Counted from the first letter of the stretch, positions 1 to 59,722 are shown. The stretch: DNA of 64,000 bases from Deltaproteobacteria bacterium (GCA_020845895.1 JADLEX010000047.1:13073-77072); one strand, 5' to 3'. Notes: generated by a model from the sequence alone, not told the origin. A program made the numbers and translations.

Positions 1-669
1 GCCGTGCCCGTGCCCGACGACTTTCACACGCAGCTCGGCGGCGCGGGGGCAACGGTGCGCGTGACGACGCCGGACGGCGACACGATCGAGGCGAAAAGCC
101 CGATCTACGCCGTCGAGGACAACGGGTTCGGCGGGCGGACGAGCGAGCCGGGGTGGGGGATGCTCGGCACGGTTTACGCCCTCGTGCAGGGCGCGCCGCA
201 ACTGCCCGACCACGACGATCCCTGCGACGATCCCCTCGTGCCAGAGGTTCCGTATGAGTGCCCGTACACGACCATGCTCGTGCCGAATTTCGCGGTTCCC
301 GTCACGCCTTTCGATCAGGGCTTTCCGGGCCTGTCCGCGAATCTCAAGGAGTGGTTCGGAATCTGGTTCGACGGCTACCTTGTCGCCTCGGAATCGGGAA
401 GTTACGAACTCGGACTGTGCTCGGACGACGGATCGCGTCTTTACCTGCCCGGCGTGTCCGACGACCCCGTGATCGTGAACGACGGCCAGCATTCGTACCA
501 GTGCGTCGGCGCGGAGGTCGAGTTGGATGCGGGTCGAAACCGATTCAAACTGGACTATTTTCAGGGGCCGGCCAACGAAATCGCGCTGGAAATGTACTGG
601 ACGCCGCCCGGAGGCGCGTCCGCGATCATCCCGGCGACGCAGTTCCGTCTGTTCGACGAGGACTTCTAA
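1..669 (+). CDS. PA14-domain protein, C-terminal fragment (5' end lies outside window)
   Basis: ORF open to window edge; motif blocks GIWFDGYLV / SYELGLCSDDGSRLYL / RFKLDYFQG / LEMYW typical of PA14 (GLEYA-like) beta-sandwich; recognised by eye, no search run. Confidence 0.55.
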   Translation, partial: AVPVPDDFHTQLGGAGATVRVTTPDGDTIEAKSPIYAVEDNGFGGRTSEPGWGMLGTVYALVQGAPQLPDHDDPCDDPLVPEVPYECPYTTMLVPNFAVPVTPFDQGFPGLSANLKEWFGIWFDGYLVASESGSYELGLCSDDGSRLYLPGVSDDPVIVNDGQHSYQCVGAEVELDAGRNRFKLDYFQGPANEIALEMYWTPPGGASAIIPATQFRLFDEDF

Positions 670-814: not shown

Positions 815-2761
815 ATGGGGAGAGGTTTTGTCATGGGGGATGATCGAAAACGTAGGCGTCGTTTCGGTCGCGCGCTGGTCGCCGCGGTTGTCACTTTCGT
901 TGTCCTGGCGGCATTCGCCCCGGCCGCTTTCGCCCAGACGCAGGATCAGCGCACGCTCTTCGTGATCGGCAACATCAACTCGGCCTTCGGCACGTTCCCG
1001 CTGCGGGCCTACAACATCGTCGACGACACGATCGTTCTCGCGAACACCTGGTACCCGGCCGCGCGCGACGACGGCGCGGTGGGTATCGGCGTCGATCCCG
1101 TCAACGCGCACATGTTCGTCACGTACGAGAACCTCGACCTCACGGTCGGCGTGGTGGACGTGTACGACGCCACCGACGCCACGCCGCTCGGACAGATTTC
1201 GCTCGTCGGCACCACGAATCTCGCGGGCATCGACGTGCACGCGGGGCGCGGGGTCATGTACGTCGTCGACCGCTGCATGCCGACCATCTACACCTTTGAC
1301 ACGGACACGTTCCAGCCGATCGACTCGTGGGACATGCCGACCAGCAGTTGCGCCTATGGCATCGACGTGATCGACGAGGAAGACCTGATCTTCGTCGCCG
1401 ACGCGTCCAACACGGTGCACTGGTATGATATCGACACCCACGAAGAGGTCGGCAGCGCCACGCTCACGTACCCCTCCGCGTCCATCGCCGTCGACTATTC
1501 CGAGGGCTACCCGGTCATTTACACCTCATGCGTCGATGGACAGTCTGAAATCGCGCCGCCCGGCGACGTGCCTTATCTGGTGAAGTACAACACCAACACC
1601 GACACGCAGACCACGTATTATCTCGGCGCGAATCAGTCGGGGCGCGGCATCGGTCTCGACGTCGTCAATCGCCGGGCGTACATCGCGGCGGGCGTCGTGG
1701 GCGGCCTCGCGAGCGGCACCATCCGCGTCGTGGACATGGACACGATGACGGAGCTGTCGCGTTCGCAGCTCCCCGGCGGCTTCGGCACGCCGTGGAGCCC
1801 GACGGATCTCGAAACCACGTGGCTCGCGTTCGGCAGCAACATCCAGAAGACCTCGCCGACGCATCCCGACGGCGAGATTGAGGTTGGCCAGCAGATCACG
1901 TTCGAGATCACCATCGAGAACCGCTACAGCCGGCCGATCCACGTATTACCGTTCAAGGACGATTACGACCCCGCGCACCTGACCTTCGTGTCGGCTACAC
2001 CGACCCCCGACAACGTGGACACGGTCAACGGCGTGGTCGAGTGGAATGATCTGATTCCGTCCGTCGGCCACGATATGGAGTTCGAGGAAACGTACACCGT
2101 CACGGTCGTGTTCGAGGCGAATCCGCCCGACTCGTGCGAGACGTGGGTGGACGGCACCAACACCGGCATCATGTCCGGCGCGGAAAACGACCGCGGCGAC
2201 GTACTCGATGAGTCCTCGGGCTCGATGGCTTATCGCATCTGGTGCACCTGCCAGAACGACGAGGAGTGTGACAACGGCCTGTGGTGCGACGGCGAAGAGC
2301 AGTGTCTCAACCGCGAGTGCGTGTCGCTCGGCAACCCGTGCCCCATCGACGACGGCATCTTCTGCAACGGCGAGGAGACGCTGGTGTGCGTGGAGGAGAC
2401 GCAGGAATGCGGCCACTCCGGCGACCCGTGCGCCGATGACGGCAACCTGTGCAACGGCGTCGAGTCGTGCAACGAAGAAGCAGGCCAGTGCGAAAACACC
2501 GGCGACCCGTGCACGGACGACGGCGAGTATTGCAACGGCGACGAGTTCTGTGACCCGACGAAGGTGGATTGCCGGCACAGTGGCAATCCCTGCGACGAGG
2601 ACGAGACGTGTAACGAGCCGACGGACGAGTGTCTTGCGCCCGGCGAGGACCCCGGCCTCGACAAGGAGCCCGGCGGCGACAAGGACGAAGACGCCGGCTG
2701 GCCCGAGGGTCAGGTGACCGGCGGTTGCTGCGGCTGCGGCGACAACGGCAAGGACGACTGA
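815..2761 (+). CDS. secreted surface protein: signal peptide, LVIVD/YVTN-like beta-propeller repeats, DUF11-like domain, tandem Cys-rich (CNG..E.C) repeats, acidic Gly/Cys C-terminal tail
   Basis: 648-aa ORF; N-terminal basic-hydrophobic-AFAQ signal peptide; repeated VxxxD/YVVD blocks; ITFEITIEN...LTFVSATP segment resembles DUF11; C-terminal repeats C.DG.(F/L)CNG.E.C x6; ends GGCCGCGDNGKDD; paralog of 4212..5771. Confidence 0.7.
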   Translation: MGRGFVMGDDRKRRRRFGRALVAAVVTFVVLAAFAPAAFAQTQDQRTLFVIGNINSAFGTFPLRAYNIVDDTIVLANTWYPAARDDGAVGIGVDPVNAHMFVTYENLDLTVGVVDVYDATDATPLGQISLVGTTNLAGIDVHAGRGVMYVVDRCMPTIYTFDTDTFQPIDSWDMPTSSCAYGIDVIDEEDLIFVADASNTVHWYDIDTHEEVGSATLTYPSASIAVDYSEGYPVIYTSCVDGQSEIAPPGDVPYLVKYNTNTDTQTTYYLGANQSGRGIGLDVVNRRAYIAAGVVGGLASGTIRVVDMDTMTELSRSQLPGGFGTPWSPTDLETTWLAFGSNIQKTSPTHPDGEIEVGQQITFEITIENRYSRPIHVLPFKDDYDPAHLTFVSATPTPDNVDTVNGVVEWNDLIPSVGHDMEFEETYTVTVVFEANPPDSCETWVDGTNTGIMSGAENDRGDVLDESSGSMAYRIWCTCQNDEECDNGLWCDGEEQCLNRECVSLGNPCPIDDGIFCNGEETLVCVEETQECGHSGDPCADDGNLCNGVESCNEEAGQCENTGDPCTDDGEYCNGDEFCDPTKVDCRHSGNPCDEDETCNEPTDECLAPGEDPGLDKEPGGDKDEDAGWPEGQVTGGCCGCGDNGKDD

Positions 2762-2887
2762 CGAAACCACGAATCGAGCGAGCCCGGGGCGGCGGTTCCG
2801 GGCTCGTTTCATTTCCCGGCCGCACTCGAAAAATTTCGACTCGTGCGTCCGGTTCATCGCGGGCTCTGCCCGCGCGGGAGCGATGCG

Positions 2888-3994
2888 ATGAATTTTGCGA
2901 AGGTTTCCGTTTGGCGATTCGCGATGCTCGCGACCTTGCTCGCGTCCGTGACGATCGGTTGCGGCGACGATGACGACGACGATTCCGAGCCCGGCGATGA
3001 CGACGCTGCCGACGACGATGTGTCCGATGACGATACGGAAGACGACGACACGGGGGACGACGACACGGCGGACGACGATACGACAGATGACGACACCGGC
3101 GACGACGACACGGCGGACGACGATACCGACGACGACACGGCCGACGACGACACGGCCGATGACGACACGACCGACGACGACACCGGTGACGACGACACGC
3201 AGATCGCGTGCGAAGACCTGATCACACCCGAACTCGTCGAGCCCGAGGTTGTGGAAATTCCCGCGGGGACGTTCACGCAGGGCAGCCCCGAGGAAGAACT
3301 CGGCCACTCGAGTCTGGAAGAACAGCGCGAGGTCACGATCTCGAAGGCATTCTACATGATGAAGTATGAGGTCACGCAGTCGCTGTGGCTCGCGGCGATG
3401 GGCGAGATCAATCCCTACCAGGTGGAGTGCGGCGACAACTATCCGGTCACGGTGGTGCGTTGGATGGACGCGGTCGAATTCGCGAACCTGCTTTCGGTCG
3501 AATTCGGCTACACCGAGTGCTACGAGATCGGCGAGACGAGCGCGACGTGGGACACCGACTGCACCGGGTTTCGCCTGCCCACCGAGGCCGAGTGGGAATA
3601 CGCCGCGCGCGCGGGCACCGACACGGCGTTTTACAACGGTGACATCGTCGATCCCGGCTGCGCCGACGAGGGGTTGCTGGACATCGCATGGTACTGCGGC
3701 GCGGGATACTCCGCGCATGAGGTCGGCCTGAAGGATCCCAACGCGTGGGGCCTGTACGACATGCTGGGCAACGCTTGGGAGTGGGCGTTCGACGGCTACG
3801 ATGCCGAGCCGTACAATTACGACCCCGCGGGCCCGGTGACCGACCCCGTCGCGCCGGGCACGTTGGCGCGCATCTATCGCGGAGGTTCGATGTACGCTTA
3901 CGCGGCCAACTGCCGCGCGGCGTATCGGCGGCTCGCGCTATCGACCTACATGGACGAGGACAACGGCGTGCGGCTCGCGCGCAACAAGCCGTAG
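2888..3994 (+). CDS. lipoprotein with poly-Asp/Thr linker and FGE-sulfatase (SUMF1/DUF323) family catalytic domain
   Basis: ATG at 2888 follows in-frame upstream ORF start at 2843; lipobox TIGC; ~75-aa (DDDTx)n linker; C-terminal domain has RWMDAVEF..., GFRLPTEAEWEYAARAG, GNAWEW, RGGS motifs characteristic of formylglycine-generating-enzyme fold. Confidence 0.75.
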   Translation: MNFAKVSVWRFAMLATLLASVTIGCGDDDDDDSEPGDDDAADDDVSDDDTEDDDTGDDDTADDDTTDDDTGDDDTADDDTDDDTADDDTADDDTTDDDTGDDDTQIACEDLITPELVEPEVVEIPAGTFTQGSPEEELGHSSLEEQREVTISKAFYMMKYEVTQSLWLAAMGEINPYQVECGDNYPVTVVRWMDAVEFANLLSVEFGYTECYEIGETSATWDTDCTGFRLPTEAEWEYAARAGTDTAFYNGDIVDPGCADEGLLDIAWYCGAGYSAHEVGLKDPNAWGLYDMLGNAWEWAFDGYDAEPYNYDPAGPVTDPVAPGTLARIYRGGSMYAYAANCRAAYRRLALSTYMDEDNGVRLARNKP

Positions 3995-4077
3995 GGAGAG
4001 GCGTGAGGCGTGAGGCTTGGGTCTTTGGGCTTGGGGCTTGGGGCATGAAGCGGGGGTAGATCCTTCGCTTCGCTCAG

Positions 4078-4168
4078 GATGACAGATGCGAGGGTGCAAT
4101 TCGTCGCCCTGAGCGTGTCTTTGTCACCCTGAGCGCAGCGAAGGGTCTGTTCGCGGCAGACAATGGTT
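4078..4168. repeat. REP/MITE-like palindromic element (family A): inverted arms CCTTCGCTTCGCTCAGG / CCTGAGCGCAGCGAAGGG around a GTCACCCTGAGCG core
   Basis: inverted repeat seen directly at 4081-4097 and 4148-4165; related copy with tandem expansion at 54949..55158. Confidence 0.6.
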
Positions 4169-4211
4169 TAACGGCAAACGGCTCGCAAGAGTCGGGCGGG
4201 AGAGACAGCAC

Positions 4212-5771
4212 ATGAATCGTTTTCGCATGTTCGTGACGGTGATGGCGGCGTTGGCCCTGGTTGCGTCGTTCGCGGCAACGGCCGGGGCGCAGAGCGTTCC
4301 TTCGGAGCCGCGCGTCGTCTACGCGCTGGGCAACGTCAACGCCACCTTCGCATATCCCGTCAATGTCTTTCTGATCTGGGACGACGAACTTATTCCCGCC
4401 GAAACTCTGTTGATCGATCCGGAGGACGAATTCGAGCCCGTGGGAATCACCGTCGATTCGCTGAACAAGCGTGTATTCATCGCGCCGGAACACGGCGATG
4501 CACTCGGCGTGCTCAACGCGGAAAACGGTGAATTGCTTTCTCCCTTCACGATCGAGAGTGCGGGCGGGCTCGCGGGTCTGGAAGTCGTGGAGAATCAGGG
4601 CGACTTCTACGTCGCCGACCTGACGGACTACGACATGTTCGTTTACGATCTCGAAACGCTCGATCGCATCGATGAGTGGGTCGTTTCCGGCGGCTCCGCG
4701 GCGTTCGGCGTCGCGGTCTCGAGCGGACTGCTTTATCTCGGCAACGGCTCGAACGTCGTGCCGATCTATAACGTCTACACGCACGAGCAGGTCGGCGATT
4801 TCGAGATCGCCGACATGGCGCTCGCCATCGACGTGTGGGAGATGGACCCGCCGCGCGTCTTCACCTCGCCGGGGTTCACCACCAACTTCGTCACGCGATA
4901 CGACCTGGGGACGGGCGTGGAGACGCAGCTCGATCTCGGCACGATCGCCAAGGGACTCGCGGTCAACTCCGACGCCGGACTCCTCTATCAGCTCGCCGGT
5001 TCGGGCATCCTGCCGGAGACAAGCCTTCGCGTGATCGACGCCGAAACGCTCACCGAGCTGTCGAGCCACCCGCTCGGCGACGGCACATGGAGCCCGACCG
5101 ACGTCAAGATCGGCAGCAACTCCTTCGGCCGCCGCGTGGCGGTCGATCTGATCGGCGTGACCGAGCGCGTCTTCGATTCCGGTCAGACGGTGACATTCGA
5201 GATCATCGTGACGAACGATGCGGATTCGGCGATCGAAACGATGCCCTTCGAGGTGCTGTTCCATTCGGACACGCTGACCTACGTGAGCGCGACGCCGGCT
5301 TCCGACGCGTCCGATCCCGCCGGTTCGGTGACGTGGACCGACATCACCGCGAACCAGGGCGAGAACCTCGCGCCGGGCGAGAGCTTCACGATCATCGTGG
5401 AATTCACCGCACAGGTCCCGCCGGGCTGCGCGGGCAGCGAAGGCGACATGGTGATCGCGCGGATGGTGGGAGCGTCGCTCGGCGGCGGCGGCACCGTCGA
5501 GGACTCGGCGGGCAGCACGCGCTTCGCGGTGCTGTGTCCCTGCGCCGACAGCGCGGTTTGCGACGACGGCCTCTTCTGCACGGGTGTCGAGATCTGCGAC
5601 TCCACGAACCAGTGCGAGGACGGCGACCAACCGTGCGAGATCGACGAGATCTGCAACGAGGAGACCGACTCGTGCGATCCGCTTCCCGGTGCTGATGACG
5701 ACGACGACCTGCCCGAGCCCGAGGCCGACGACGACGACGATTCGTCCGGCCAGGGCGGATGCGGGTGCTGA
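4212..5771 (+). CDS. secreted surface protein, paralog of 815..2761 (beta-propeller repeats, DUF11-like domain, Cys-rich repeats, poly-Asp stretch, C-terminal GGCGC)
   Basis: 519-aa ORF with signal peptide (MNRFRMFVTVMAALALVASFAATAGAQ); YALGNVNATFA vs FVIGNINSAFGTF parallels paralog; TFEIIVTND...LTYVSATP DUF11-like; Cys-rich repeats; ends DDDDDSSGQGGCGC; the opposite-strand 635-aa ORF 4074..5981 is treated as a shadow. Confidence 0.7.
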   Translation: MNRFRMFVTVMAALALVASFAATAGAQSVPSEPRVVYALGNVNATFAYPVNVFLIWDDELIPAETLLIDPEDEFEPVGITVDSLNKRVFIAPEHGDALGVLNAENGELLSPFTIESAGGLAGLEVVENQGDFYVADLTDYDMFVYDLETLDRIDEWVVSGGSAAFGVAVSSGLLYLGNGSNVVPIYNVYTHEQVGDFEIADMALAIDVWEMDPPRVFTSPGFTTNFVTRYDLGTGVETQLDLGTIAKGLAVNSDAGLLYQLAGSGILPETSLRVIDAETLTELSSHPLGDGTWSPTDVKIGSNSFGRRVAVDLIGVTERVFDSGQTVTFEIIVTNDADSAIETMPFEVLFHSDTLTYVSATPASDASDPAGSVTWTDITANQGENLAPGESFTIIVEFTAQVPPGCAGSEGDMVIARMVGASLGGGGTVEDSAGSTRFAVLCPCADSAVCDDGLFCTGVEICDSTNQCEDGDQPCEIDEICNEETDSCDPLPGADDDDDLPEPEADDDDDSSGQGGCGC

Positions 5772-6544
5772 CGGCCGCGCGCCGGGTATTCGACACGATC
5801 TTTCCGCCGGTGTGCGTGCTGTGCGGCGGTCTCGCCGCCGGCCCGGACACGGGCGTTTGCGCGCGGTGCGACGCCGCGCTGCCGCGCATCCTTCCGCCGT
5901 ATTGCCGGGTTTGCGGAGCGCCTTTCGAGTCCGGTCTCGCGTCGCGCGCATGCCTCGACTGCATGAGCGACCCACCGCCATACGCCCTCGCGCGGGCGCC
6001 GCTGCGCTACGAGGGCGAGGCGCGCCGTTCGATCCTCGCGTTCAAGTTCCGGCTCGGCGTGCATCGGGCTCGCGGCTTCGCCGACCTGCTCGCATCCGTC
6101 GTGTCCATGGGTGTGACCTGGAGCGATTTCGACATCGCCGCGCCGGTGCCGCTGCACCCGCGCCGCCTGCGCGAAAGGGGCTACAACCCGCCGCTGCTCA
6201 TCGCGCGTCGGCTCTTGCGCCAAACGCCCGTCGCGCTGCGTCCGGAGCTGATGCAGCGCGTGCGAGATACGCCGCCCCAGCGCGGCCTGTCACGGGCGGG
6301 GAGACGAGACAACGTGCGTAGCGCGTTCGCCGTGCGCGACGGCGAAACCGTCGCGGGTCTGCGCGTGCTGCTCATCGATGATGTCCTCACGACAGGTGCG
6401 ACCGCCGCCGAGTGCGCGCGCGTGCTGATGCGCGCCGGGGCCGCGCGCGTCGGCGTCGTCACGCTCGCCCGGGCAACGCGCGGACGCCCGGTGCTGGACG
6501 AGGACCCCATCGACGAGACGGACGAAGACTCCCCATCGTCCTGA
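5759..6544 (+). CDS. comF: ComF/GntX-family phosphoribosyltransferase (double zinc-ribbon N-terminus + PRTase domain)
   Basis: CVLCGG...CARCD...CRVCGAPF...CLDC zinc ribbons followed by PRTase signature VLLIDDVLTTGAT; start overlaps upstream stop by 13 nt. Confidence 0.75.
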   Translation: MRVLTAARRVFDTIFPPVCVLCGGLAAGPDTGVCARCDAALPRILPPYCRVCGAPFESGLASRACLDCMSDPPPYALARAPLRYEGEARRSILAFKFRLGVHRARGFADLLASVVSMGVTWSDFDIAAPVPLHPRRLRERGYNPPLLIARRLLRQTPVALRPELMQRVRDTPPQRGLSRAGRRDNVRSAFAVRDGETVAGLRVLLIDDVLTTGATAAECARVLMRAGAARVGVVTLARATRGRPVLDEDPIDETDEDSPSS

Positions 6545-6557
6545 AAATCCCGCCCAC

Positions 6558-6617
6558 GACATGCGACGCCTTTCGCGTCATGCGACGCCCTTCGTGACAT
6601 GCGACCCCCGATGACGC
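6558..6617. repeat. three tandem ~20-bp direct repeats (C)ATGCGACGCCyTTCGyGwC spanning the annotated start of the HIRAN ORF
   Basis: read directly: 6558-6578, 6579-6598, 6598-6617. Confidence 0.6.
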
Positions 6618-7513
6618 ATGGCCGTCGTAATCTCGGAATCGTCACCGGGGGTTGCGCCATGTTGGTTATCGGAGTTTTTCGGGTGTACGACGTTCGGATT
6701 CGCATGTCGGGTACGGAACAGGAGTTCGTCTTCATCGAGTCGAACGGGGCGCTGACGCTCGTGTCGGATCTCGATGTGTCCCAATTTCACCTTCTCCTCG
6801 AGCGCGCGATTCGCCCGAAGACGGTCGATGCCGAGATCCGCATCCGGATGTACGGGACCGCGGGCGAGCGGCGGGATTTGCCGGCGCGTACCGATCCCGT
6901 TGCGCGGTTCGCCGCATTGTTTCTCGCCCTCGCGCACATCAAGGGCGGGGCGATCCTGCGCGGGCTCGAGATCGCGGACGGCTTCGACAAGGCGGACGAA
7001 CTCGATGTCGAAGTCGCCTCGAAGCTGCTGGATGAGGACGAACGGCAAAATGTGCTGGCCGAGGCGCTGTGGAGCCCGTGGCACGGACGGCCGCTGCCGA
7101 CGACCCACCCCCTACGCGCTCTCGCGAAGCTCACGGACGAATCGGACGAGGACCTGGTGCGCCGCCTGCGCGAGTGGTACGGCCGCGCGACGCGCTGGTC
7201 GAGCCGCGTGGTAGGTTTCGCGCACGTGAAGGAACACTTCATCCACCTGGAGCACGGGACCGAAGTGCGTCGCCTCGAAGCGGGCGATTCGTGCTGGCTC
7301 GTGCGCGAGCACGACAACCCCGTCGATCCCAACGCGGTGATGGTCATGCATGAAAGCGGGCAGAAACTCGGTTACCTGCGGCGCACGATTGCGCAAGTGC
7401 TGGCGACGCACCTCGACCGCGGCGCGATCTTCGATGCCCGCGTGTGCGCGTTCCTGCCGCGCGAGTATCCGCTCGACGAGCGCGTCTACCTGGAGATCCG
7501 CCGCGCGGCGTGA
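6599..7513 (+). CDS. hypothetical protein with C-terminal HIRAN domain
   Basis: C-terminal block CWLVREHDNPVDPNAVMVMHESGQKLGYLRRTIAQVLATHLD matches HIRAN (NP.D.NA..V....G..lGYlpr..A..la) architecture; N-terminal ~200 aa unassigned; start uncertain (lies in tandem repeat). Confidence 0.5.
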   Translation: MRPPMTHGRRNLGIVTGGCAMLVIGVFRVYDVRIRMSGTEQEFVFIESNGALTLVSDLDVSQFHLLLERAIRPKTVDAEIRIRMYGTAGERRDLPARTDPVARFAALFLALAHIKGGAILRGLEIADGFDKADELDVEVASKLLDEDERQNVLAEALWSPWHGRPLPTTHPLRALAKLTDESDEDLVRRLREWYGRATRWSSRVVGFAHVKEHFIHLEHGTEVRRLEAGDSCWLVREHDNPVDPNAVMVMHESGQKLGYLRRTIAQVLATHLDRGAIFDARVCAFLPREYPLDERVYLEIRRAA

Positions 7514-26588: not shown

Positions 26589-26661
26589 GGGCGGATAGCT
26601 CAGTTGGCAGAGCAGCGGCTTTACACGCCGCGGGTCGCAGGTTCGAGCCCTGTTCCGCCCA
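26589..26661 (+). tRNA. tRNA-Val (anticodon TAC)
   Basis: cloverleaf folded by hand: acceptor GGGCGGA/TCCGCCC, D-arm GCTC-AGTTGGCA-GAGC, anticodon stem GCGGC/GCCGC with loop TTTACAC, T-loop TTCGAGC, discriminator A; CCA not encoded. Confidence 0.85.
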
Positions 26662-26706: not shown

Positions 26707-27399
26707 ATGCGCGTCGAAGCGTTTCGCACGCGAGTTCTGCGCACCAACACCTACGTCGTTGGGCCCGAGACGGGTCGAGATGTGGCCGTCATCGACCCGG
26801 GCGCGCCAGGGCCCGTGCTGGATTTCGTGCTTCGCGAGAATCTGCGCGTCGTCGCGATCATCAACACGCACGCGCATCTCGACCACGTCTGGGGGAATCA
26901 CCCGCTGGCGGCGGCGACCGGCGCGCCGGTGATGATCCACGCCGACGATGCGGCGAAGGCGACGCGCGCGCATCCGTTGGCGTGGGCGGTGCGCGGCAAG
27001 CGCGCGTGGAGCCCCACCCCCGCGCGGCTGCTCGTGGGCGGCGATGTCATCAGCGTGGGGACGATCGACCTCGAGGTCATCCACACGCCGGGGCACACGC
27101 CGGGCGGCATCTGCCTGAAATACAAGAAGACGCTCTTCACCGGCGACTCGCTCATGGCCGGGGCGATCGGCAATACGGACAAGCCCGAGGACTGGAAGCG
27201 GCTCTCGACGGCGATTCAGGACCACCTCTTTGTCCTCTCGGACGACATCGCGGTGTGGCCCGGCCACGGCCCGCGCACGACCATCGAACGTGAACGCAAA
27301 CTCAACATCTTCGTCCGCCACAGCCCCGAATTGATCGAACGCTGGCTGCTCGATTCGCTGCGCAGACCGCGAAAACGCAAGGACGCCGAAGTCTCGTGA
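26707..27399 (+). CDS. MBL-fold metallo-hydrolase (glyoxalase II-like)
   Basis: THAHLDH metal-binding motif plus downstream His/Asp ligands. Confidence 0.8.
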   Translation: MRVEAFRTRVLRTNTYVVGPETGRDVAVIDPGAPGPVLDFVLRENLRVVAIINTHAHLDHVWGNHPLAAATGAPVMIHADDAAKATRAHPLAWAVRGKRAWSPTPARLLVGGDVISVGTIDLEVIHTPGHTPGGICLKYKKTLFTGDSLMAGAIGNTDKPEDWKRLSTAIQDHLFVLSDDIAVWPGHGPRTTIERERKLNIFVRHSPELIERWLLDSLRRPRKRKDAEVS

Positions 27400-29216
27400 A
27401 AAATTTGAATCCGGAACGGAATCATTCATCGCGGCCGGGACGACGATTGCGCCCCGTTGCCGTTGCGCTGCTGTTCGCCGCGTTTTTTGCGACCGCGTGC
27501 CGGCAGGACCCGGCGGCGCAACTCGTCGGCGACATGTACGGACTGATCGAGGAGTTCTACATCAGCGCCTCGTCGCCCGCGGACCTGACGGCGAATGCAT
27601 TGCAGGGACTGGAGCGCTCGCTCGCGGCGAAAGCGTATCGCGAGAAGCTGGAGAAGGAGAAAGCGGAGAAGGACGCGGCGAAGGAGGCGGGGGAAGCCGC
27701 GCCATCGCCGGAACCTGAGACATCGCCCTCGCCCGCGCCGGCGGAGACGCCGCCCAGTCCCCATGGCCCGAACGCGGACCCGTCGGTCGGCGTGCCCGAA
27801 GAGCCGCCGCCCGAAGGCTCGCTCGACCCCTACGCGTTGCCCGAGGACGAGAACGGCGATCTTCCGCCAGGGCCGCTGCGCGTCGAGATCGACGGCCGTC
27901 GCGCGGTGCTGGCCATCGCGAACGAGACGCTCGCCATCGACATTCCCGAAGACCGCCGCGGCGCGGTGGACGCGTTCCTGCGCGCCTACGTTTTCGTGCG
28001 CGGAAAGCTCGACGACGGCGATCCCGAGGAGGAGCTGTTCAACGACGCGCTCGGCTTCATGACGTTCCGCCTCGATCCGCACTCACAGTACATGGCCGCG
28101 AGCCAATACACGCGACTGCGCGACGAAACGTCGGGGCATTTCGGCGGCGTGGGTATCGAAGTCGGCATGCGCTCCGATCAACTCACCGTCATCGCGCCGA
28201 TCCCGGGCACGCCCGCCGCCAACGCCGGTCTGAAGCCGATGGACCGCATCGTTAAGGTGGACGGCGTCGAAACGCTCGGCCTGTCGCTCAACGAGGCGGT
28301 GGATATGATCCGCGGCGAGATCGGCACGAGCGTCACGCTCACCATGAAGCGCGCCGACGATCCGCCCTTCGAGGTGAAGCTTCTGCGAAGCGACATTCCC
28401 GTGAACACGATCAAGGCGGAACGCGTCGAAGGCGACATCGCGTGGATCCGGGTCTATTCGTTCAATCAAAACACCGGCGCGGATCTGCGTAAGGCGCTCG
28501 GGGAATTCGATCGCAAAGCCCCGCCGCTGCGCGGCGTCATTCTCGACATGCGCAACAATCCGGGCGGCCTGCTCGACCAGGCGGTCGAGGTGGCCGACGA
28601 ATTCCTCTCGGCCGGCATCATCGTCAACACCATCGGCCGTGGTCGCCTGCGCGAAACCGAAAAATTCGCGACGATGCCCGGAGCCCGCGGCAACACGCCC
28701 GTCGTCGTGCTCATCAACAGCGTTTCGGCGAGCGGCACCGAAATCGTCGCCGGCGCGTTGCAGGACCACAAACGTGCGCTCATCCTCGGTACGCGCAGCT
28801 TCGGCAAGGGCAGCGTGCAGTCGATCTTCAAGCTTCGCGAGGACGCGGGGCTGCGTCTCACCACCGCGCTCTACTACACCCCCTCGGGCCGGTCGATTCA
28901 GGCGCAGGGCATCGTGCCCGACGTGCTGGTGAAACTCTCGCCCGAAGAAGAGCGCATGCTCGCGATGTACTGGTCCGAATCGGCGCTCTCGGGTCACCTC
29001 AAGAGCCAGGCCACGACCGAGAGCGAGGCCGACGTGGTGTGCGAGGCCGAGAAAATGCGCGCGCACTACCTCAAGACGGGCGCCATCGTCGAGGACGAGA
29101 ACTTTCCCGAAAAAAGCGACTGGCTGCTCGTCTTCGCCCGCGAAATTCTCGACGGCGACGACCGGTCGATCCCGGCCATGACCGAGCGCGCACGCGGGAT
29201 CGTGAACGGACTTTAA
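27396..29216 (+). CDS. ctpA: S41-family carboxyl-terminal processing protease with PDZ domain
   Basis: PDZ block GIEVG...GTPAANAGLKPMDRIVKVDG; S41 catalytic region VILDMRNNPGGLL...SASGTEIVAGALQD...SFGKGSVQ. Confidence 0.85.
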   Translation: MKNLNPERNHSSRPGRRLRPVAVALLFAAFFATACRQDPAAQLVGDMYGLIEEFYISASSPADLTANALQGLERSLAAKAYREKLEKEKAEKDAAKEAGEAAPSPEPETSPSPAPAETPPSPHGPNADPSVGVPEEPPPEGSLDPYALPEDENGDLPPGPLRVEIDGRRAVLAIANETLAIDIPEDRRGAVDAFLRAYVFVRGKLDDGDPEEELFNDALGFMTFRLDPHSQYMAASQYTRLRDETSGHFGGVGIEVGMRSDQLTVIAPIPGTPAANAGLKPMDRIVKVDGVETLGLSLNEAVDMIRGEIGTSVTLTMKRADDPPFEVKLLRSDIPVNTIKAERVEGDIAWIRVYSFNQNTGADLRKALGEFDRKAPPLRGVILDMRNNPGGLLDQAVEVADEFLSAGIIVNTIGRGRLRETEKFATMPGARGNTPVVVLINSVSASGTEIVAGALQDHKRALILGTRSFGKGSVQSIFKLREDAGLRLTTALYYTPSGRSIQAQGIVPDVLVKLSPEEERMLAMYWSESALSGHLKSQATTESEADVVCEAEKMRAHYLKTGAIVEDENFPEKSDWLLVFAREILDGDDRSIPAMTERARGIVNGL

Positions 29217-31942: not shown

Positions 31943-32103
31943 CGCGGAACTAAAAATAACCTTTGGCTTTCCGCACGCGCGGCCAAGGCCGAGATTTTTC
32001 TTTTTTCCAAGTCAAAATTGTGATATTCGATACACACTAGATCCGGCGCGAAAGTGTGCGTTGGTCGATGTTTTGGATGTTTCCAAACTCTGGAGGTGGT
32101 GCG

Positions 32104-32892
32104 ATGCGCGAGTGGATGTTGGTGCTGCCGGCGATTTGCACTGCGCTGTTCCTGCTCAGCGGATGCGGCGACGATGATGACGACAACGACACGGCTCCCT
32201 CCGATGACGATGTCGATGACGACGCCGATGATGACGCGGACGACGATGCCGATGACGACGTCGACGACGATGTCGATGACGATGCGGACGACGACTCGGC
32301 CTTCCCCGATCCCTTCACGGAAGACTTCGAGAGTTACGACTTGGGGACAACGCCCAACGGTCCGTGGTCGCCGGAGTATATCGAAGGCGCCCTCGCCTTC
32401 ACTATCGTCGAGGCCGTGACCAAGGACGGATCCGGCCACGTTGTCGAATTCGACGATCCGGACGGATCTTCCTGGGGCGAGCTGCACGCGAATTTCCCCG
32501 AACAGACGAGCATGTTCACGCTGTCGTGGGATTGGTACTGGCTGTCGGGAGAAATGGCCTGCGTATCGGCGACGCACTCGGGCGGCGGCGGTTGGACCAG
32601 CCTGTTCGACGTGTGTCTCAATATCGCGCCCGACGCACACGTCGAGGCGATCAACGGCGAAGGACAGTGGATCGGCTGCGGCCTGACCGCCCTTGAAACG
32701 TGGCAGACGGTCAGCATGGTTGTGGACTCGTCCTCCATGACCTACTCGGTGCTGATCGACGGCGCGCCGAGCAGTTGCACCGACTTCGACTGGTACATGC
32801 AGAGCGGCCCCGTCGACAGCTTTTCGCTGATGGCGATCGGCGTTTACGACGGTCTTGCGCATTTCGACAACATAGCGCTCACGCACGACTGA
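32104..32892 (+). CDS. lipoprotein with poly-Asp linker and domain of unknown function
   Basis: lipobox LLSGC then DDDDDND...(DDDAx)n; AT-rich promoter-like region upstream. Confidence 0.55.
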   Translation: MREWMLVLPAICTALFLLSGCGDDDDDNDTAPSDDDVDDDADDDADDDADDDVDDDVDDDADDDSAFPDPFTEDFESYDLGTTPNGPWSPEYIEGALAFTIVEAVTKDGSGHVVEFDDPDGSSWGELHANFPEQTSMFTLSWDWYWLSGEMACVSATHSGGGGWTSLFDVCLNIAPDAHVEAINGEGQWIGCGLTALETWQTVSMVVDSSSMTYSVLIDGAPSSCTDFDWYMQSGPVDSFSLMAIGVYDGLAHFDNIALTHD

Positions 32893-55179: not shown

Positions 55180-56808
55180 TCAAGGCAGCAACGATCGCTC
55201 GAACAGCGCGTACTCCCGGTCGAGGTGGCGATACGTCCCCGCGACGCTCCACGCATCGCCTTGCCCCAAAAACGCGGGTGCGTCGAAGTCCTGCGGCGCG
55301 ATCAAATACGCCGCGTCCTCGATCCACTTCTCGGGCGGGCGCAGCGTTTCCGACGCCCAGTACATCGCGAGGCGTCCGTCGGTCTCGAATTTCACATCCT
55401 TGATCTCGACGTTCGCGCCGTCGCGCAGCAGCGTATACGTCAGCGGAAACGCGAAGGGGTGCTCCACGTCGCTCACGCCAGTCGGAACATTCAGGAAACG
55501 CACCACGATCATCGGGCGCTCGCGCCCGCGCGCCGCGTCGCCGAGCCGCGAGCACACTTCGTCGATTTGCGTCGATTCCCACGTGCGCGGCGGGCCGATG
55601 TGCAGATCCTGCTGGTAGTCGAACGCCGTCCAACGCACGCCCATCGGGTTTGCCCACCAGCCGTTCTGATTAAGCCAGTCGCGGGGAATCGCGTTCGTCG
55701 CCATGCCGAGCCACCCCGCGAGCGCGACACCGACCACCGCGATGTGCGCACCCGTCCGCCATCTCGCGCGAGGAATCGCCGCGAGGCCGGCCGCCATGAC
55801 CGCCGCGAATCCGCACGCCCACGGGGCGACGTAGTGCGCGAGTTTCCAGTCGAGGCATGAAAACACGAGCCACGGCAGGGCGAAGAACGCCGCGAGGTGC
55901 GCCCGCGCGGGACTTCGCCGCGCGAAAACCCAGATCGCGGCGACGACAAAAATCGGAAACAGCCACGGCCCGAGGCCGATGTCCGCCACCGTGAACGGAT
56001 AGAACATCGCGTTGTTCCACGACCAGATCGGCTCGCCCGCGAGATTGCCCGCGAGCGTGACGCGAATCGCGCCACCGCGGATCTTGTTCGCGAAGTTCAC
56101 GCCGTACCACGTCAACGCAATCGCGACGGAGACGCCCGCCGCGATGGCGAGGTTCGCGAACTTCGCGCGTCGGCGCGTCGGACTCGTCTCGCAGATCATG
56201 GCGACGAATTCGACGAGCGACGGCCCCAGCAGCAGAATCGGGAAGTTGTCGCGCGTCAGCGTGCCGAGCCCCGCCGCGACGCCGAACGCGAGCGCGCGGC
56301 GCCGGTCGGAAAAGGACTGCGTTTCGAGAAGCAGACGAAACGCCATCGCCACCATGCCGATCGACGCAAAGTCGAGCATCGCCATGCGCGAAAGACCCCC
56401 CGCGAGGGGGAGCGTGGTGACGAGAATCGCCGCGACCACGCCCGCGCGGCTCGAGCGCGTCAGGTGTCGCGCGATGCCGTGCGCGCCCCACACGAGCGCC
56501 GCGTGAAACGGGATGTTCGCGGCGATGTCCACCTGAATCGACGGCCCGAAGACGTGATGCAGCGCCGTGGCGACGAGGTAGTAGAGCGGCGTATAAACCC
56601 CGCCCCAGATCTGCCCCGGGCCGTGCCGCCACGTCCACATGATCGTCTGAAGGTGGCCGACCTCGTCACCGTACAGCCGCGTGGCCATGTGCGACGTGAA
56701 CCACGCGTTGACAAGCGCCTGCGCGGCGACGATCGCGACGAGGGCGATCCACGCGCGGTCCGGCGTGGGCGCGGACTCGTCAGGTGGTGGGGGGATCGCC
56801 TTCGTCAT
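55180..56808 (-). CDS. GT-C fold membrane glycosyltransferase, family 39/83-like (PMT/ArnT-type), paralog 2
   Basis: multi-TM; loop-1 YGDEVGH motif; similar topology to 17611..19170. Confidence 0.6.
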   Translation of the reverse strand: MTKAIPPPPDESAPTPDRAWIALVAIVAAQALVNAWFTSHMATRLYGDEVGHLQTIMWTWRHGPGQIWGGVYTPLYYLVATALHHVFGPSIQVDIAANIPFHAALVWGAHGIARHLTRSSRAGVVAAILVTTLPLAGGLSRMAMLDFASIGMVAMAFRLLLETQSFSDRRRALAFGVAAGLGTLTRDNFPILLLGPSLVEFVAMICETSPTRRRAKFANLAIAAGVSVAIALTWYGVNFANKIRGGAIRVTLAGNLAGEPIWSWNNAMFYPFTVADIGLGPWLFPIFVVAAIWVFARRSPARAHLAAFFALPWLVFSCLDWKLAHYVAPWACGFAAVMAAGLAAIPRARWRTGAHIAVVGVALAGWLGMATNAIPRDWLNQNGWWANPMGVRWTAFDYQQDLHIGPPRTWESTQIDEVCSRLGDAARGRERPMIVVRFLNVPTGVSDVEHPFAFPLTYTLLRDGANVEIKDVKFETDGRLAMYWASETLRPPEKWIEDAAYLIAPQDFDAPAFLGQGDAWSVAGTYRHLDREYALFERSLLP

Positions 56809-57223: not shown

Positions 57224-57502
57224 ATGACGGTGCATATTTATTCGGACTTCGCGGCGGGCAACGACGCGTGGGACGGCAGTCAGGCCACCTCCGGCGGAGG
57301 CAGCATCGGCCCGAAAAAGCACATCAACGCCGCGAAAGCCTTGGTGACGAACCCCGTGGAGGATGAGGTCATTATCCACGTCGCGGGCGACACGGCAAAC
57401 CCCGGTAACCGGAACCCCCAGCGTCCCACAGGCACCAAGATCAATACTCTCATGGCAGACCACACTACCAACGATAAGGATGATTGCTATGAAAGCGCGT
57501 AA
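57224..57502 (+). CDS. short ORF resembling only the N-terminal ~60 aa of right-handed beta-helix (pectate-lyase-like) proteins; possible gene remnant
   Basis: YSDFAAGNDAWDGS...P..INAAKALV...GD.VIIHVAG matches beta-helix N-cap consensus; strong RBS; only 92 aa; low-GC. Confidence 0.4.
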   Translation: MTVHIYSDFAAGNDAWDGSQATSGGGSIGPKKHINAAKALVTNPVEDEVIIHVAGDTANPGNRNPQRPTGTKINTLMADHTTNDKDDCYESA

Positions 57503-58235
57503 TCATGCTATATTGTTATGTGTGACGGCCATTGCGATTCTTACTTGTGCAAAAACGAGCGCTTGGGCCACGTCATGGGCTGCAAGTACAGATGAGCTGA
57601 CGTCACCCTCGTTTCTAGCATCGCATTCCGTCGGTGTATTTCGTGGAACCGTTGTCTCGATCGATTATCGGACCGTTGCCACCCCTTCCGGAGGAAGTTA
57701 CGCGTATACCATAGTCCGATTTACTGTTACTGAACAGTACGCCGGATCGGATACGGGTCGAGAAAAGATCATCTACGTTGCTGGCGGGCAGAACGGCGAA
57801 CGTCGTCAGGCCATAGCTGGCGCACCTTCTTTTAACGTAGATGATGATGTTGTGGTTTTCGAAGGAAGTTCAAACCATTGGTTGTTCGGCTCCTCGTTCG
57901 GTATGCATGGGGTATTCCGATTCATTAAGGGCGAAACCGACTTGATCGTCCTAAACAACAATGGTTTTCCAGTCACTGCTATCAACAACGCAAACATTTC
58001 TGTCAAAGAGGACTACCGGTGCGAGTTGTCTCTGGATAGGAAACACTGTGACGCATGGACTTCAGCAGACGCATTGGATACCAAGACAACCAAAGAGCTT
58101 GAGCCCATGTTGGTCAACGCTACGGACTTCGAAAATGACATCCGCGATATTGCAAAAAACACCGCTCTGGCTCCCTCCCGGCCACTGTCGGGGACAGAAT
58201 TCGTCGAATTCCTTAAGCATTTTGTTGCGAATTGA
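57489..58235 (+). CDS. secreted hypothetical protein
   Basis: signal peptide MKARNHAILLCVTAIAILTCAKTSAWA; start overlaps previous ORF by 14 nt; low GC. Confidence 0.5.
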   Translation: MKARNHAILLCVTAIAILTCAKTSAWATSWAASTDELTSPSFLASHSVGVFRGTVVSIDYRTVATPSGGSYAYTIVRFTVTEQYAGSDTGREKIIYVAGGQNGERRQAIAGAPSFNVDDDVVVFEGSSNHWLFGSSFGMHGVFRFIKGETDLIVLNNNGFPVTAINNANISVKEDYRCELSLDRKHCDAWTSADALDTKTTKELEPMLVNATDFENDIRDIAKNTALAPSRPLSGTEFVEFLKHFVAN

Positions 58236-58259
58236 CACACTCACAGAACGAAGGAGGAA

Positions 58260-59405
58260 ATGTCCATGCGAGCACCTAATGCGAAAATCGTCGCGTTGTC
58301 ATTCGCGTTGTGTGTGCTGTCAATTCTATTGTCTCCACAATCGGCCGCTGCTTGGGTGTGGTGGACAATCGACGGTTGTCCGGTCGCTTGGGATGCGAAT
58401 CCGACAATCCAAATAGACGTCGGCCCCGGGGATTTTTATAATATGATTCAACGAGAGGCGGTGAGCCATCCGGCAGCGAGAATCGGCGCGGTGAACGATT
58501 CTTGGATCGACATCAATTTGGTAACCACGACATCAACCGGCTCGGATAACGGTGAAAGCGAAATTTGGATGGCACCTCTTCCGGATGGTACGCTCGGCCT
58601 GACGATGATGGATATCGGCGCATATTGCGAAATTTGGGAAATGGATATCAAGATCGCCGATGACGTCGATTGGATATGGGGCATTCCAACAACCGTCAGG
58701 GATCCGTATCCGTTTGGCGACGGTGGCGACTTTTATGCCAGACCCGTCATTATCCACGAGTTGTTGCACGGCGTTGGACTCGATCATACGACCTCTGACT
58801 TTGGATACATGCATCCCACTGTTTCGTCTGGTTCAGTGCTTTTCACAAATAGGGACGACAACAAACGCGTGGAGCCCGCGCCTAAAGAACGTCAAGGACT
58901 TCGGACGATTTACCCCCAAAGCGAAACCGAAACCGATCTGGCGATAGCAAACAACATTTGGCCGAATGACGTTGGGACTGGCGACATCAAAAATTATAAA
59001 CTTTGCAGACCCGCATATGGCTTACATTGGGCTGGCAAATTCGATCAATATTGCACGACTGCGGAAATCCACTCAAATCTCTGCCCTGGCGATTTTGTCA
59101 AGGTTCGCGTCCCCGTCATGAACTACGGCCACAGTTCTGCAACCTACAATTTGGAAATGTGGTTTTCAATCAACGACCCTTGGGGGTCCGGTACGGACCA
59201 GGAATCGCCGACAGTCCGCTCGGCGACGACCGGCGCTGTTAGCACCACACTCGTAGAGACCTCGTTTGAGATCCCATCGACCGTCTCAAACGGACAAAAC
59301 TACTACATAATCATGCGAGTCAAGCCGATCGCCAACGAGGAATCCACTATGAACAACTGGATGCCGATGCGCGGGTTGATCGGCATCGGAACCGAATGTC
59401 CATGA
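58260..59405 (+). CDS. secreted metzincin zinc metalloprotease (HExxHxxGxxH + Met-turn)
   Basis: signal peptide; VIIHELLHGVGLDHT zinc-binding consensus and downstream SDFGYMHP Met-turn; low GC. Confidence 0.75.
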   Translation: MSMRAPNAKIVALSFALCVLSILLSPQSAAAWVWWTIDGCPVAWDANPTIQIDVGPGDFYNMIQREAVSHPAARIGAVNDSWIDINLVTTTSTGSDNGESEIWMAPLPDGTLGLTMMDIGAYCEIWEMDIKIADDVDWIWGIPTTVRDPYPFGDGGDFYARPVIIHELLHGVGLDHTTSDFGYMHPTVSSGSVLFTNRDDNKRVEPAPKERQGLRTIYPQSETETDLAIANNIWPNDVGTGDIKNYKLCRPAYGLHWAGKFDQYCTTAEIHSNLCPGDFVKVRVPVMNYGHSSATYNLEMWFSINDPWGSGTDQESPTVRSATTGAVSTTLVETSFEIPSTVSNGQNYYIIMRVKPIANEESTMNNWMPMRGLIGIGTECP

Positions 59406-59431
59406 CAAGCGGTCTAAGACAGGAGAAGATC

Positions 59432-59722
59432 ATGAAATATGCCATTTTGACGGCGGCACTGACCATAGTTTTGATCGGCTGTGACAGCGGCGACGACGAT
59501 GACGACGACCAAGCCGCCTGCAGCGGACTGTCCCAGGAGGGCGAAGAATGCCTTGATCGATGCGGTGAGGAACGTGAAGCGTGCGAGAAGGATTGCGCAG
59601 AGACCGCAGAAGATGTTTTGATGTGCGAGTCAGAATGTGGGCCTGTCTACGATAAATGTTATAATGAATGCTACGAAAAATTCCCTGCCGCAGAGCAATG
59701 TGTGGACACAATTGCCACATGA
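59432..59722 (+). CDS. small Cys-rich lipoprotein with poly-Asp linker
   Basis: MKYAILTAALTIVLIGC-DSGDDDDDDQ; 12 Cys in ~75 mature residues (CxxxC / ExC pattern). Confidence 0.5.
   Translation: MKYAILTAALTIVLIGCDSGDDDDDDQAACSGLSQEGEECLDRCGEEREACEKDCAETAEDVLMCESECGPVYDKCYNECYEKFPAAEQCVDTIAT

Follow-up and report, generated by a model that had tools for sequence, protein, structure and literature searches.

Each of the signals LPXTG, PEP-CTERM, GlyGly-CTERM and MYXO-CTERM has brought to light a new sorting enzyme and has provided a means of cataloguing the surface proteome of an organism. In eukaryotes, the CaaX and Rab CC/CXC sequences place a Cys or a Cys-x-Cys at or near the end of a flexible tail without a transmembrane (TM) helix and serve as cytosolic prenylation signals. 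The MYXO-CTERM protein TraA of Myxococcus xanthus has a PA14-like head. MYXO-CTERM is a tripartite signal which consists of a Cys signature, a TM helix and an Arg-rich end and is cleaved by an intramembrane CPBP protease (PMC11980579; 10.1101/2023.06.07.544157). Processing depends on its invariant Cys, and lipidation of the tag is predicted to precede display at the surface (PMC11980579; Haft, bioRxiv 10.1101/2023.06.07.544157). TraA itself combines Cys repeats with a MYXO-CTERM, for the invariant Cys of which lipidation is predicted (PMC11980579; bioRxiv 10.1101/2023.06.07.544157). Here we analyze a stretch of 64,000 nucleotides (GCA_020845895.1, JADLEX010000047.1:13073-77072; the window in the following) from a metagenome-assembled genome (MAG) labelled 'Deltaproteobacteria bacterium'. 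The window encodes two secreted proteins, A and B, which end in a Gly/Cys-rich tail directly before the stop codon; these are the only such tails in the window. The tail looks specific to the Lernaellota (FEN-1099), appears to be undescribed and matches no Pfam or NCBIfam model. The parts of the two proteins are as follows, in window coordinates.

815..2761, + strand: protein A, 648 aa, secreted, with a YVTN-type propeller, a DUF11-like sandwich, a Cys-repeat stalk, an acidic linker and a Cys-cluster tail
815..937, + strand: signal peptide of A, residues 1-41, cleavage after AFA (before Q), read from the sequence
947..1819, + strand: beta-propeller of A, residues ~45-335, all-beta, with Foldseek matches to 1L0Q, YncE and BtuG2; predicted local distance difference test (pLDDT) mostly 85-95
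1832..2248, + strand: DUF11-like beta-sandwich of A, residues ~340-478, pLDDT >90, PF01345 23.4 bits
2243..2632, + strand: Cys-rich repeat stalk of A, residues 477-606, four units of ~27 aa with 4 Cys each and a half-unit cap
2633..2695, + strand: acidic Pro/Gly-rich linker of A, gap-rich unalignable columns, pLDDT <50, length and sequence variable among homologues
2696..2758, + strand: C-terminal tail of A, GWPEGQVTGGCCGCGDNGKDD, directly before the stop
2776..2814, + strand: terminator-like hairpin followed by UUUCAUUU, directly 3' of the stop of A, minimum free energy -30.8 kcal/mol, z = -2.27
4212..5771, + strand: protein B, 519 aa, with a propeller, a DUF11-like sandwich, one Cys unit plus cap, a poly-Asp linker and a short tail
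5748..5768, + strand: short tail of B, GQGGCGC (the protein ends ...SSGQGGCGC), which aligns with the CCGC tails

Within the C-terminal half, no other part is as well conserved as the tail. The family alignment shows no variation at C639, G640 and C641 of protein A and at least 90% conservation at G636, G637 and C638. Eleven of the 12 full-length homologues (36-58% identity) end in (A/P)GWPEGxVTGGCCGC followed by 0-7 residues. The linker in front of it cannot be aligned among the homologues and varies in length from roughly 12 to 70 residues. The Cys cluster is followed by G, E, D, GK, GS or GDNGKDD; the homologue P0141, with GGGCGCG plus 10 residues, widens this range to 0-10 residues. Because the tail is invariant where the linkers are unalignable and is always found at the very C-terminus in five genomes, its conservation is far beyond chance. 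The tail is encoded by 32 distinct DNA versions, with synonymous change at seven of eight positions; only the second Cys is always TGC. Selection therefore acts on the peptide, and this synonymous variation rules out a DNA-level element which mimics a peptide.

We scanned one genome per species, 185,579 species in total, with a degenerate DNA pattern for G-x-VTGGCCGC and obtained 41 loci. About 39 instances come from five FEN-1099 MAGs, and every one of them lies 0-7 residues from a stop. The instances per MAG, which represent the pattern-matching subset of the carriers in each genome, are 10 in FR_14 'FR-FEN-1099-1', 13 in SRP191223_co1_360, 7 in CAXXWT01, 5 in binchicken_co97_82 and 4 in binchicken_co200_86. 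Dozens of otherwise dissimilar secreted proteins of the phylum thus share the tail, which an earlier note on this DNA had taken for a possible distinct C-terminal motif. Another six matches, from Kitasatospora, Streptomyces, Gordonia, Acidobacteriales and Saprospiraceae, have no relation to the family; about this number is expected by chance. Five of these are 14-129 residues away from a stop in frames which mostly look like nonsense. The Saprospiraceae match is only 2 residues from a stop, but it is located in an open reading frame (ORF) of 74 residues without family context. A profile of the tail, searched against 1.84 billion representative proteins, retrieved only six clusters. The occurrence of the motif is therefore restricted to a very narrow lineage.

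With regard to this lineage, protein A is 100% identical to the MAG protein IT350_05865. In the species-level collection the closest genome is CAZPJD01, where the protein at locus L037 is 91% identical to A over the propeller. Exact-protein look-ups with A, B and the homologue P0002 returned nothing. Related MAGs are named FR-FEN-1099, and the phylum FEN-1099 is Candidatus Lernaellota (PMC9324843). Our literature search found no description of the tail motif and nothing relevant on Lernaellota surface proteins. To our knowledge, the Lernaellota are known only from MAGs.

Proteins A and B are paralogues with ~29% identity, B being the divergent one. NCBI places the start of A at M7, which gives a protein of 642 aa. 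The earlier note had ascribed one and the same architecture to both proteins. This is right for the signal peptide (that of B ends in AGA, followed by Q), the propeller, the DUF11-like domain, the acidic linker and the Gly/Cys tail, but tandem Cys repeats are present in A only. The repeat unit of A reads C-x-DDG-x-(F/L/Y)-CNG-x-E-x-C with the spacing CxDDGxFCNGxExCx5-8C. Protein A has 28 Cys in total, 21 of them within residues 477-606. AlphaFold2, run on A with a 12-sequence family alignment, gave a mean pLDDT of 74, with 50-70 for the Cys repeats and values below 50 for residues 576-648; tail and linker are thus predicted to be disordered. Using Foldseek against the PDB, the model of A matches best the Methanosarcina surface-layer protein 1L0Q (YVTN propeller plus PKD), followed by YncE and BtuG; the surface lipoproteins BtuG2/BT1954 are also among the matches. 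The description as a beta-propeller plus an immunoglobulin-like (Ig-like) domain is therefore right.

The domain models named beforehand were less informative. LVIVD (PF08309) does not match the propeller of A even at E<=10, and the fold is of the YVTN/YncE type. Neither the Cys repeats nor the tail have a match at E<=10 in Pfam or NCBIfam (release of June 2026), including TIGR02232, which the repeats resemble by eye only. TIGR03901 does not match at E<=10 (C-terminal 172 aa) or at E<=0.1 (whole proteins). The DUF11 assignment falls just short: PF01345 scores 23.4 bits for A and 20.6 bits for B against a cutoff of 24.6, and TIGR01451 scores 15.4 against 24, although the homologues P0002 and P0010 carry PF01345 above threshold.

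The long form of the tail is found in at least six architectures; the majority of its carriers consist of propeller, DUF11 and Cys repeats. Proteins of the B type, with propeller and DUF11 and without a Cys repeat, are encoded at the loci L010 and L016 and by the second tail ORF of L024 (539 aa), and also comprise the homologues P0015 and P0019; in the last three the full tail is present. A family of ~690-aa proteins has a different N-domain (L008, L018, L031, L038, L040). One carrier combines another N-domain with eight Cys units (L015), one has a small N-domain (L025/P0016) and L048 encodes a further architecture. Three or more unrelated N-domains are thus combined with Cys repeats and tail. 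The short form is found in four proteins, in which a poly-Asp linker precedes GGNCCGC, GACGC, GSCCGC or GGCGC. Its carriers are an FGE-sulfatase protein (L003 12539-14143; FGE, formylglycine-generating enzyme), an S8 subtilase (L007 13645-15852, Pfam 1e-37), P0012 and B; the subtilase and B have only two Cys in the tail. A signal peptide with h-region and AxA site is present in 18 of the 23 complete tail-bearing ORFs. Among the remaining five ORFs, four are broken or truncated, and the stretch which the scan selected in the fifth (L041) is internal.

We also observed that the N-domains of the ~690-aa proteins are repeated and beta-rich (...FYxFDKIxLFGYIDGTTYxIY...). A segment CDNDxDGxxGPQCDGxDCNDxDxxIYPGAxExxCDGIDQDCDG is conserved upstream of their Cys repeats; P0018 has the N-domain of this family without that segment. 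At L003 8100-9968 (JAOSJX010000004) a broken, frameshifted propeller gene lies between two intact paralogues, and its last piece ends in ...EGEVTGGCCGCG. The full-length paralogue P0008 (M5R36_07125) has an unrelated basic tail, ...KRTRGKVK, possibly due to a 3' frameshift.

The profile search for distant propeller homologues showed that the family is tiny, with 19 matches. In two of these distant homologues, P0140 and P0142, the C-terminus is formed by PKD or other domains. The most distant propeller plus DUF11 homologue, P0013 (JGI, 827 aa), carries GGGAMGWVELLLGVVGLAAVHWRR, a hydrophobic segment (TM) with RR, after its DUF11 domains and is the only distant homologue with such a TM+RR-like segment. 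P0013 continues past GGGAMGWVELLLGVVGLAAVHWRR into an OmpA-like barrel, so that the segment is not terminal as called. Possibly the segment is a classical sorting signal and the gene call is a fusion.

Since the tail is terminal, lies behind a disordered linker, is carried by unrelated passengers and occurs many times per genome in one phylum, it looks like a sorting or anchoring tag. We suggest that the acidic linker together with G-G-(x)-C-(C)-G-C (in the long form GWPEGxVTGGCCGC) may constitute a modular tag for covalent attachment via the terminal thiols. The carriers would be Sec-exported proteins which are bound for the cell envelope or surface. Our proposal is tentative and we give it a probability of about 0.42. 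The attachment could proceed in the following steps. First, Sec export and removal of the signal peptide. Then the head would fold into the YVTN propeller and the Ig-like sandwich, an architecture also found in an archaeal S-layer protein, and the Cys repeats would oxidise to give a rigid stalk. The disordered acidic linker could now present the terminal cysteine cluster, and one or more of the tail thiols would be coupled covalently to an envelope component, such that the head is tethered by its C-terminus. By analogy with MYXO-CTERM and CaaX/CXC the coupling partner would most likely be a lipid; alternatively, a disulfide could be formed with a partner protein. Trimming of the 0-10 residues past the last Cys is possible. 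As the tag has neither a TM helix nor an Arg cluster, no intramembrane cleavage would be needed. A lipoprotein similar to TvpA of Treponema denticola (see below), standing on its own poly-Asp tether, would probably join A and B in a surface complex. It is conceivable, yet in our view doubtful, that the tag is the first prokaryotic C-terminal anchor which manages without a TM helix or a sortase-type protease, with the TvpA-like lipoprotein as co-receptor.

Several points weigh against attachment. Clustering of the neighbourhoods (~0.5 Mb) did not reveal a sortase, CPBP, rhomboid or acyltransferase gene which is recurrently linked to the carriers. It is also not obvious what would keep a tail that lacks a TM segment at the membrane for its lipidation. 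As the full GWPEG..VT signature mostly accompanies Cys-repeat or propeller modules, domain shuffling instead of independent recruitment could account for part of its spread. The carrier counts given above refer to the pattern-matching subset of each genome. Moreover, three Cys beside acidic residues would also suit metal binding.

The last point leads to another explanation, namely that the tail, carried by a flexible acidic arm, binds metal (Cu, Zn, Ni or Fe/S) and serves capture, storage or mineral adhesion in anoxic habitats. Three clustered thiols behind a long Asp/Glu-rich linker could form such a site, and the Cys- and Asp-rich segment of the ~690-aa carriers (CDNDxDGxxGPQCDGxDCND...CDGIDQDCDG) looks metal-binding. 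Chelation, however, requires neither the strict terminal position nor the invariant non-ligand residues G-W-P-E-G-x-V-T-G-G. The tail has no His, and its short form in B and the subtilase offers only two Cys. We therefore regard a metal site as unlikely.

Secondly, the terminal C-G-C could be a redox-active CXC arm, for example of a disulfide shuttle or an isomerase helper, or it could form intermolecular disulfides which build up a lattice. There are precedents for both: the C-terminal CGC arm of the sulfhydryl oxidase Erv2 acts as a disulfide relay and CXC peptides mimic protein disulfide isomerase, and Cys-rich DUF11 proteins, for example chlamydial OmcB, build envelopes held together by disulfides. 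In protein A with its 28 Cys, the tail makes the Cys total of the C-terminal module uneven, and it sits on a disordered arm. But some carriers of the tail (P0015, P0019, the subtilase and the FGE-like protein) have no Cys repeats, and the conserved WPEG..VTGG resembles a recognition signature. A disulfide lattice, on the other hand, overlaps with the attachment that we propose and does not exclude it. All in all, a redox role appears rather unlikely to us.

Thirdly, the tail might be the mere structural end of the Cys-repeat domain, for instance contributing the last disulfide to the stalk, and might have been inherited with it without a separate role. Most long-form tails do follow Cys repeats, and both co-occur among the neighbours of the window. 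Yet ~12-70 disordered and non-conserved linker residues separate stalk and tail, the B-type proteins listed above (L010, L016, the second ORF of L024, P0015 and P0019) have the tail without the repeats, and the short form is found on FGE-like and S8 proteins. This explanation is largely contradicted by the carriers without repeats and we consider it very improbable.

A further explanation involves the gene between those of A and B. Three co-directional genes, namely A, an FGE-like gene and B, are confirmed by the ORF listing. The features of the middle gene are as follows.

2885..3994, + strand: FGE/C-type-lectin-fold lipoprotein, 369 aa from the ATG at 2885; the ORF opens with a GTG at 2843; PF03781 136 bits
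2957..3199, + strand: lipobox Cys25 (lipobox VTIGC) and poly-Asp (DDDTx)n linker of ~80 residues, pLDDT ~45-50

The linker is encoded by a 15-bp tandem repeat (TRF, period 15, 13.9 copies, 2995-3199). We note that a poly-Asp/(DDDxD)n spacer directly after the lipobox Cys (C-G-D-D-D-D...) also occurs in other lipoproteins of this lineage (in the window 32056-32892 and 59270-59719 besides 2957-3199; L001 15193-15624; L006 12031-13629). With its order of lipid-Cys, poly-Asp and domain, the N-terminus of these lipoproteins is a mirror image of the C-terminal Cys tail and the acidic spacer that precedes it.

In an all-against-all clustering of the ORFs, the FGE-like proteins are the sole recurrent family that is not a carrier family (14 members at 12 loci in 6 genomes). 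An FGE-like gene is located within 3.5 kb on the same strand for 11 of 31 distinct family genes, a count which includes L004, deduplicated with L005 in the computation. In ~0.5 Mb of sampled DNA, overlapping loci included, each of the 11 FGE-like matches belongs to a locus which had been retrieved for a family or tail gene; in 10 cases a family gene lies within 3.5 kb. The A-FGE-B triad is present in three genomes, in the same order at L024 (CAXXWT01) and L029 (JAOSJX01). The orthologues are 51-94% identical, the gene of CAZPJD01 being the one with 94% identity to that of the window.

The earlier note had taken this protein for a lipoprotein of the FGE/SUMF1 type, had named an intact pair of active-site cysteines as a point to check and had speculated about a module for surface-protein maturation. 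The lipobox and the PF03781 fold are indeed present, and the co-localisation is recurrent. The catalytic pair is absent. According to the HMMER alignment to human FGE (2AFT/1Y1E), Ala is found at the position of Cys336 and Cys at that of Cys341, and the latter position is variable among seven orthologues (C, C, C, C, N, T, T). As the Cu-binding catalytic Cys pair (human C336, C341) is missing or not conserved, a true FGE is ruled out. The best solved relative is TvpA (2Y3C), both by sequence (7e-24) and by fold (TM score 0.75, 30% identity, model pLDDT 80). TvpA is followed by PvdO and CarF and then by the FGEs (Foldseek to FGE structures, E~1e-14). NCBIfam has no equivalog for the FGE-like protein; the best model is GldK (PorK/GldK of the type IX secretion system) with 73.6 against a cutoff of 350. 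A sulfatase gene is located near L004 only.

Could the FGE-like protein nevertheless modify the Cys of the tail, by formylglycine formation or another oxidation of the thiol? The FGE family acts on Cys, and the PF03781 fold and the conserved adjacency with the triad in three genomes would fit. But the Cu-binding Cys pair is absent, the nearest relatives are TvpA, PvdO and CarF, and the tail does not contain the substrate motif CxPxR. Furthermore, no FGE-like gene is found at the loci of tail carriers with other architectures, and one paralogue (L003 12539-14143) ends itself in the tail, with ...SSGGNCCGC. The FGE-like gene thus tracks the propeller family and not the tail, and the paralogue is a carrier of the tag and not its processor. 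A maturase role is highly improbable in our view. Instead, the FGE-like protein is probably a non-catalytic binding subunit of a surface complex with A and B. Such a complex with both propellers would explain the conserved A-FGE-B triad. We advise not to annotate as enzymes the lipoproteins of this kind which are assigned to the formylglycine-generating enzyme family.

The match to TvpA raised the possibility that the gene is the target of a diversity-generating retroelement (DGR). We rejected this candidate: no template repeat was found in the window, blastn of 3700-4060 against the 64 kb gave no repeat of more than 40 nt, and there is no reverse transcriptase among the scanned ORFs of the window.

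The last explanation, an assembly or frameshift artefact with true proteins running on into MYXO-CTERM or another tripartite signal, can practically be dismissed, since no TM helix, hydrophobic segment or Arg cluster follows in any frame past the stops of A and B, a hairpin lies directly after the stop of A and the same ending is found in ~39 genes from five independent assemblies. The hairpin is stable on folding and has a 15-bp stem, followed by a U-run; a simple terminator scan did not call it (loop length). This supports the suggestion of the earlier note that the tail may be a C-terminal motif in its own right, as opposed to a truncated MYXO-CTERM.

A PA14-domain protein, which the earlier note had included in its module, is indeed encoded upstream.

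4..669, + strand: 3' part of the gene for a PA14-domain protein (Pfam PA14 7e-14), C-terminus ...FRLFDEDF, without the tail, context only

Its gene is absent from the homologue neighbourhoods examined and is thus not a conserved neighbour. Downstream of B follow comF (5759-6544), a HIRAN-domain gene, clpX, clpP and the trigger factor gene tig. The first possible ATG of comF lies within B, so that 13 nt (5759-5771) comprising the last four codons and the stop of B are shared; 10 of them (5759-5768) belong to the tail of B. As comF homology begins only at residue 17, the true start may be located further downstream. The product of the HIRAN-domain gene between comF and clpX (6599-7513) has 304 aa, with the HIRAN domain (1e-14) at its C-terminus. 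Genes for Lnt, for a TolC-like OEP with an RND pump and for an SLT transglycosylase are also present in the window. The organism is therefore diderm and has peptidoglycan as well as a lipoprotein machinery.

Further genes of the window may be mentioned. An S41 C-terminal processing peptidase with PDZ domains, belonging to the tail-specific protease family, is encoded at 27396-29216; it is a generic candidate for trimming residues past the Cys cluster and has no link to carriers in other loci. GT-C type glycosyltransferase genes (PMT_2, TMEM260_N, PTPS_related) occur twice, at 55180-56808 on the minus strand and at 60530-62128 on the plus strand. At two other loci such genes are found directly 3' of family or FGE genes (L004 13556-15823, L007 11856-13721), and they may serve the O-glycosylation of surface proteins. 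An island of low GC content (57363-59719, 51.7% as compared to ~65%) encodes secreted proteins, among them a small Cys-rich poly-Asp lipoprotein (59270-59719) and, at 58260-59405, a protein with the zincin-like motif HELLHGVGLDH; the island is possibly acquired DNA. A tRNA-Val(TAC) at 26589-26661 is the sole Rfam or ARAGORN match in the window.

How does the locus compare with known systems? For the head of A, the best structural match to propeller and Ig-like sandwich is 1L0Q of Methanosarcina mazei, which shares the architecture of a surface protein. In contrast to A, 1L0Q is archaeal, has only 14% identity and lacks the Cys-repeat stalk and the Cys tail. The FGE-like lipoprotein shares with SUMF1/FGE the Pfam family PF03781 and the overall fold, but differs in the Cu-binding Cys pair. 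It has the C-type-lectin/FGE fold of the DGR variable proteins of the TvpA class, 2Y3C being the top match by sequence and by fold. TvpA from T. denticola is likewise a lipoprotein, and both lack the catalytic cysteines of FGE. The non-enzymatic, ligand-binding TvpA is diversified by a DGR, whereas the window contains no template repeat for the FGE-like gene.

With the eukaryotic CaaX and CXC signals the tail shares the terminal cysteines on a flexible arm without a TM helix. In contrast to these cytosolic proteins, the Lernaellota carriers are Sec-exported, and no link to a prenyltransferase was seen. Another system which resembles the tail is MYXO-CTERM/TraA of the Myxococcota with its myxosortase MrtX. 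Both have a secreted head, Cys-rich repeats and a short C-terminal tag with an essential Cys after Gly, and the layout of A with head, stalk, linker and Cys tag parallels that of TraA. In both cases there are dozens of carriers per genome in one phylum, and the signature is short with an invariant Cys near the C-terminus (for the tail according to the family alignment and the ~39 instances). Different from MYXO-CTERM, the Lernaellota tail ends 0-10 residues past the Cys cluster and is followed by neither a TM helix nor an Arg cluster. This would imply an attachment chemistry unlike that of every described bacterial system, and attachment without a TM segment, if confirmed, would be mechanistically new for bacteria. 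If the more far-reaching idea of a first prokaryotic anchor without a TM helix, which we regard as doubtful, is true, the tail would be a bacterial counterpart of the eukaryotic CaaX/CXC tails, with lipidation or cross-linking in the periplasm displaying the surface proteome of a phylum. By analogy with the sorting signals that led to new enzymes, the tail could be a comparable handle on the surface proteome of the Lernaellota, and the propeller proteins, the subtilase, the FGE-like proteins and several unknown families make up a list of carriers for tests. We infer that the tail joins the Cys-containing C-terminal sorting and anchoring tags as a kind and that it is comparable to TraA and MYXO-CTERM.

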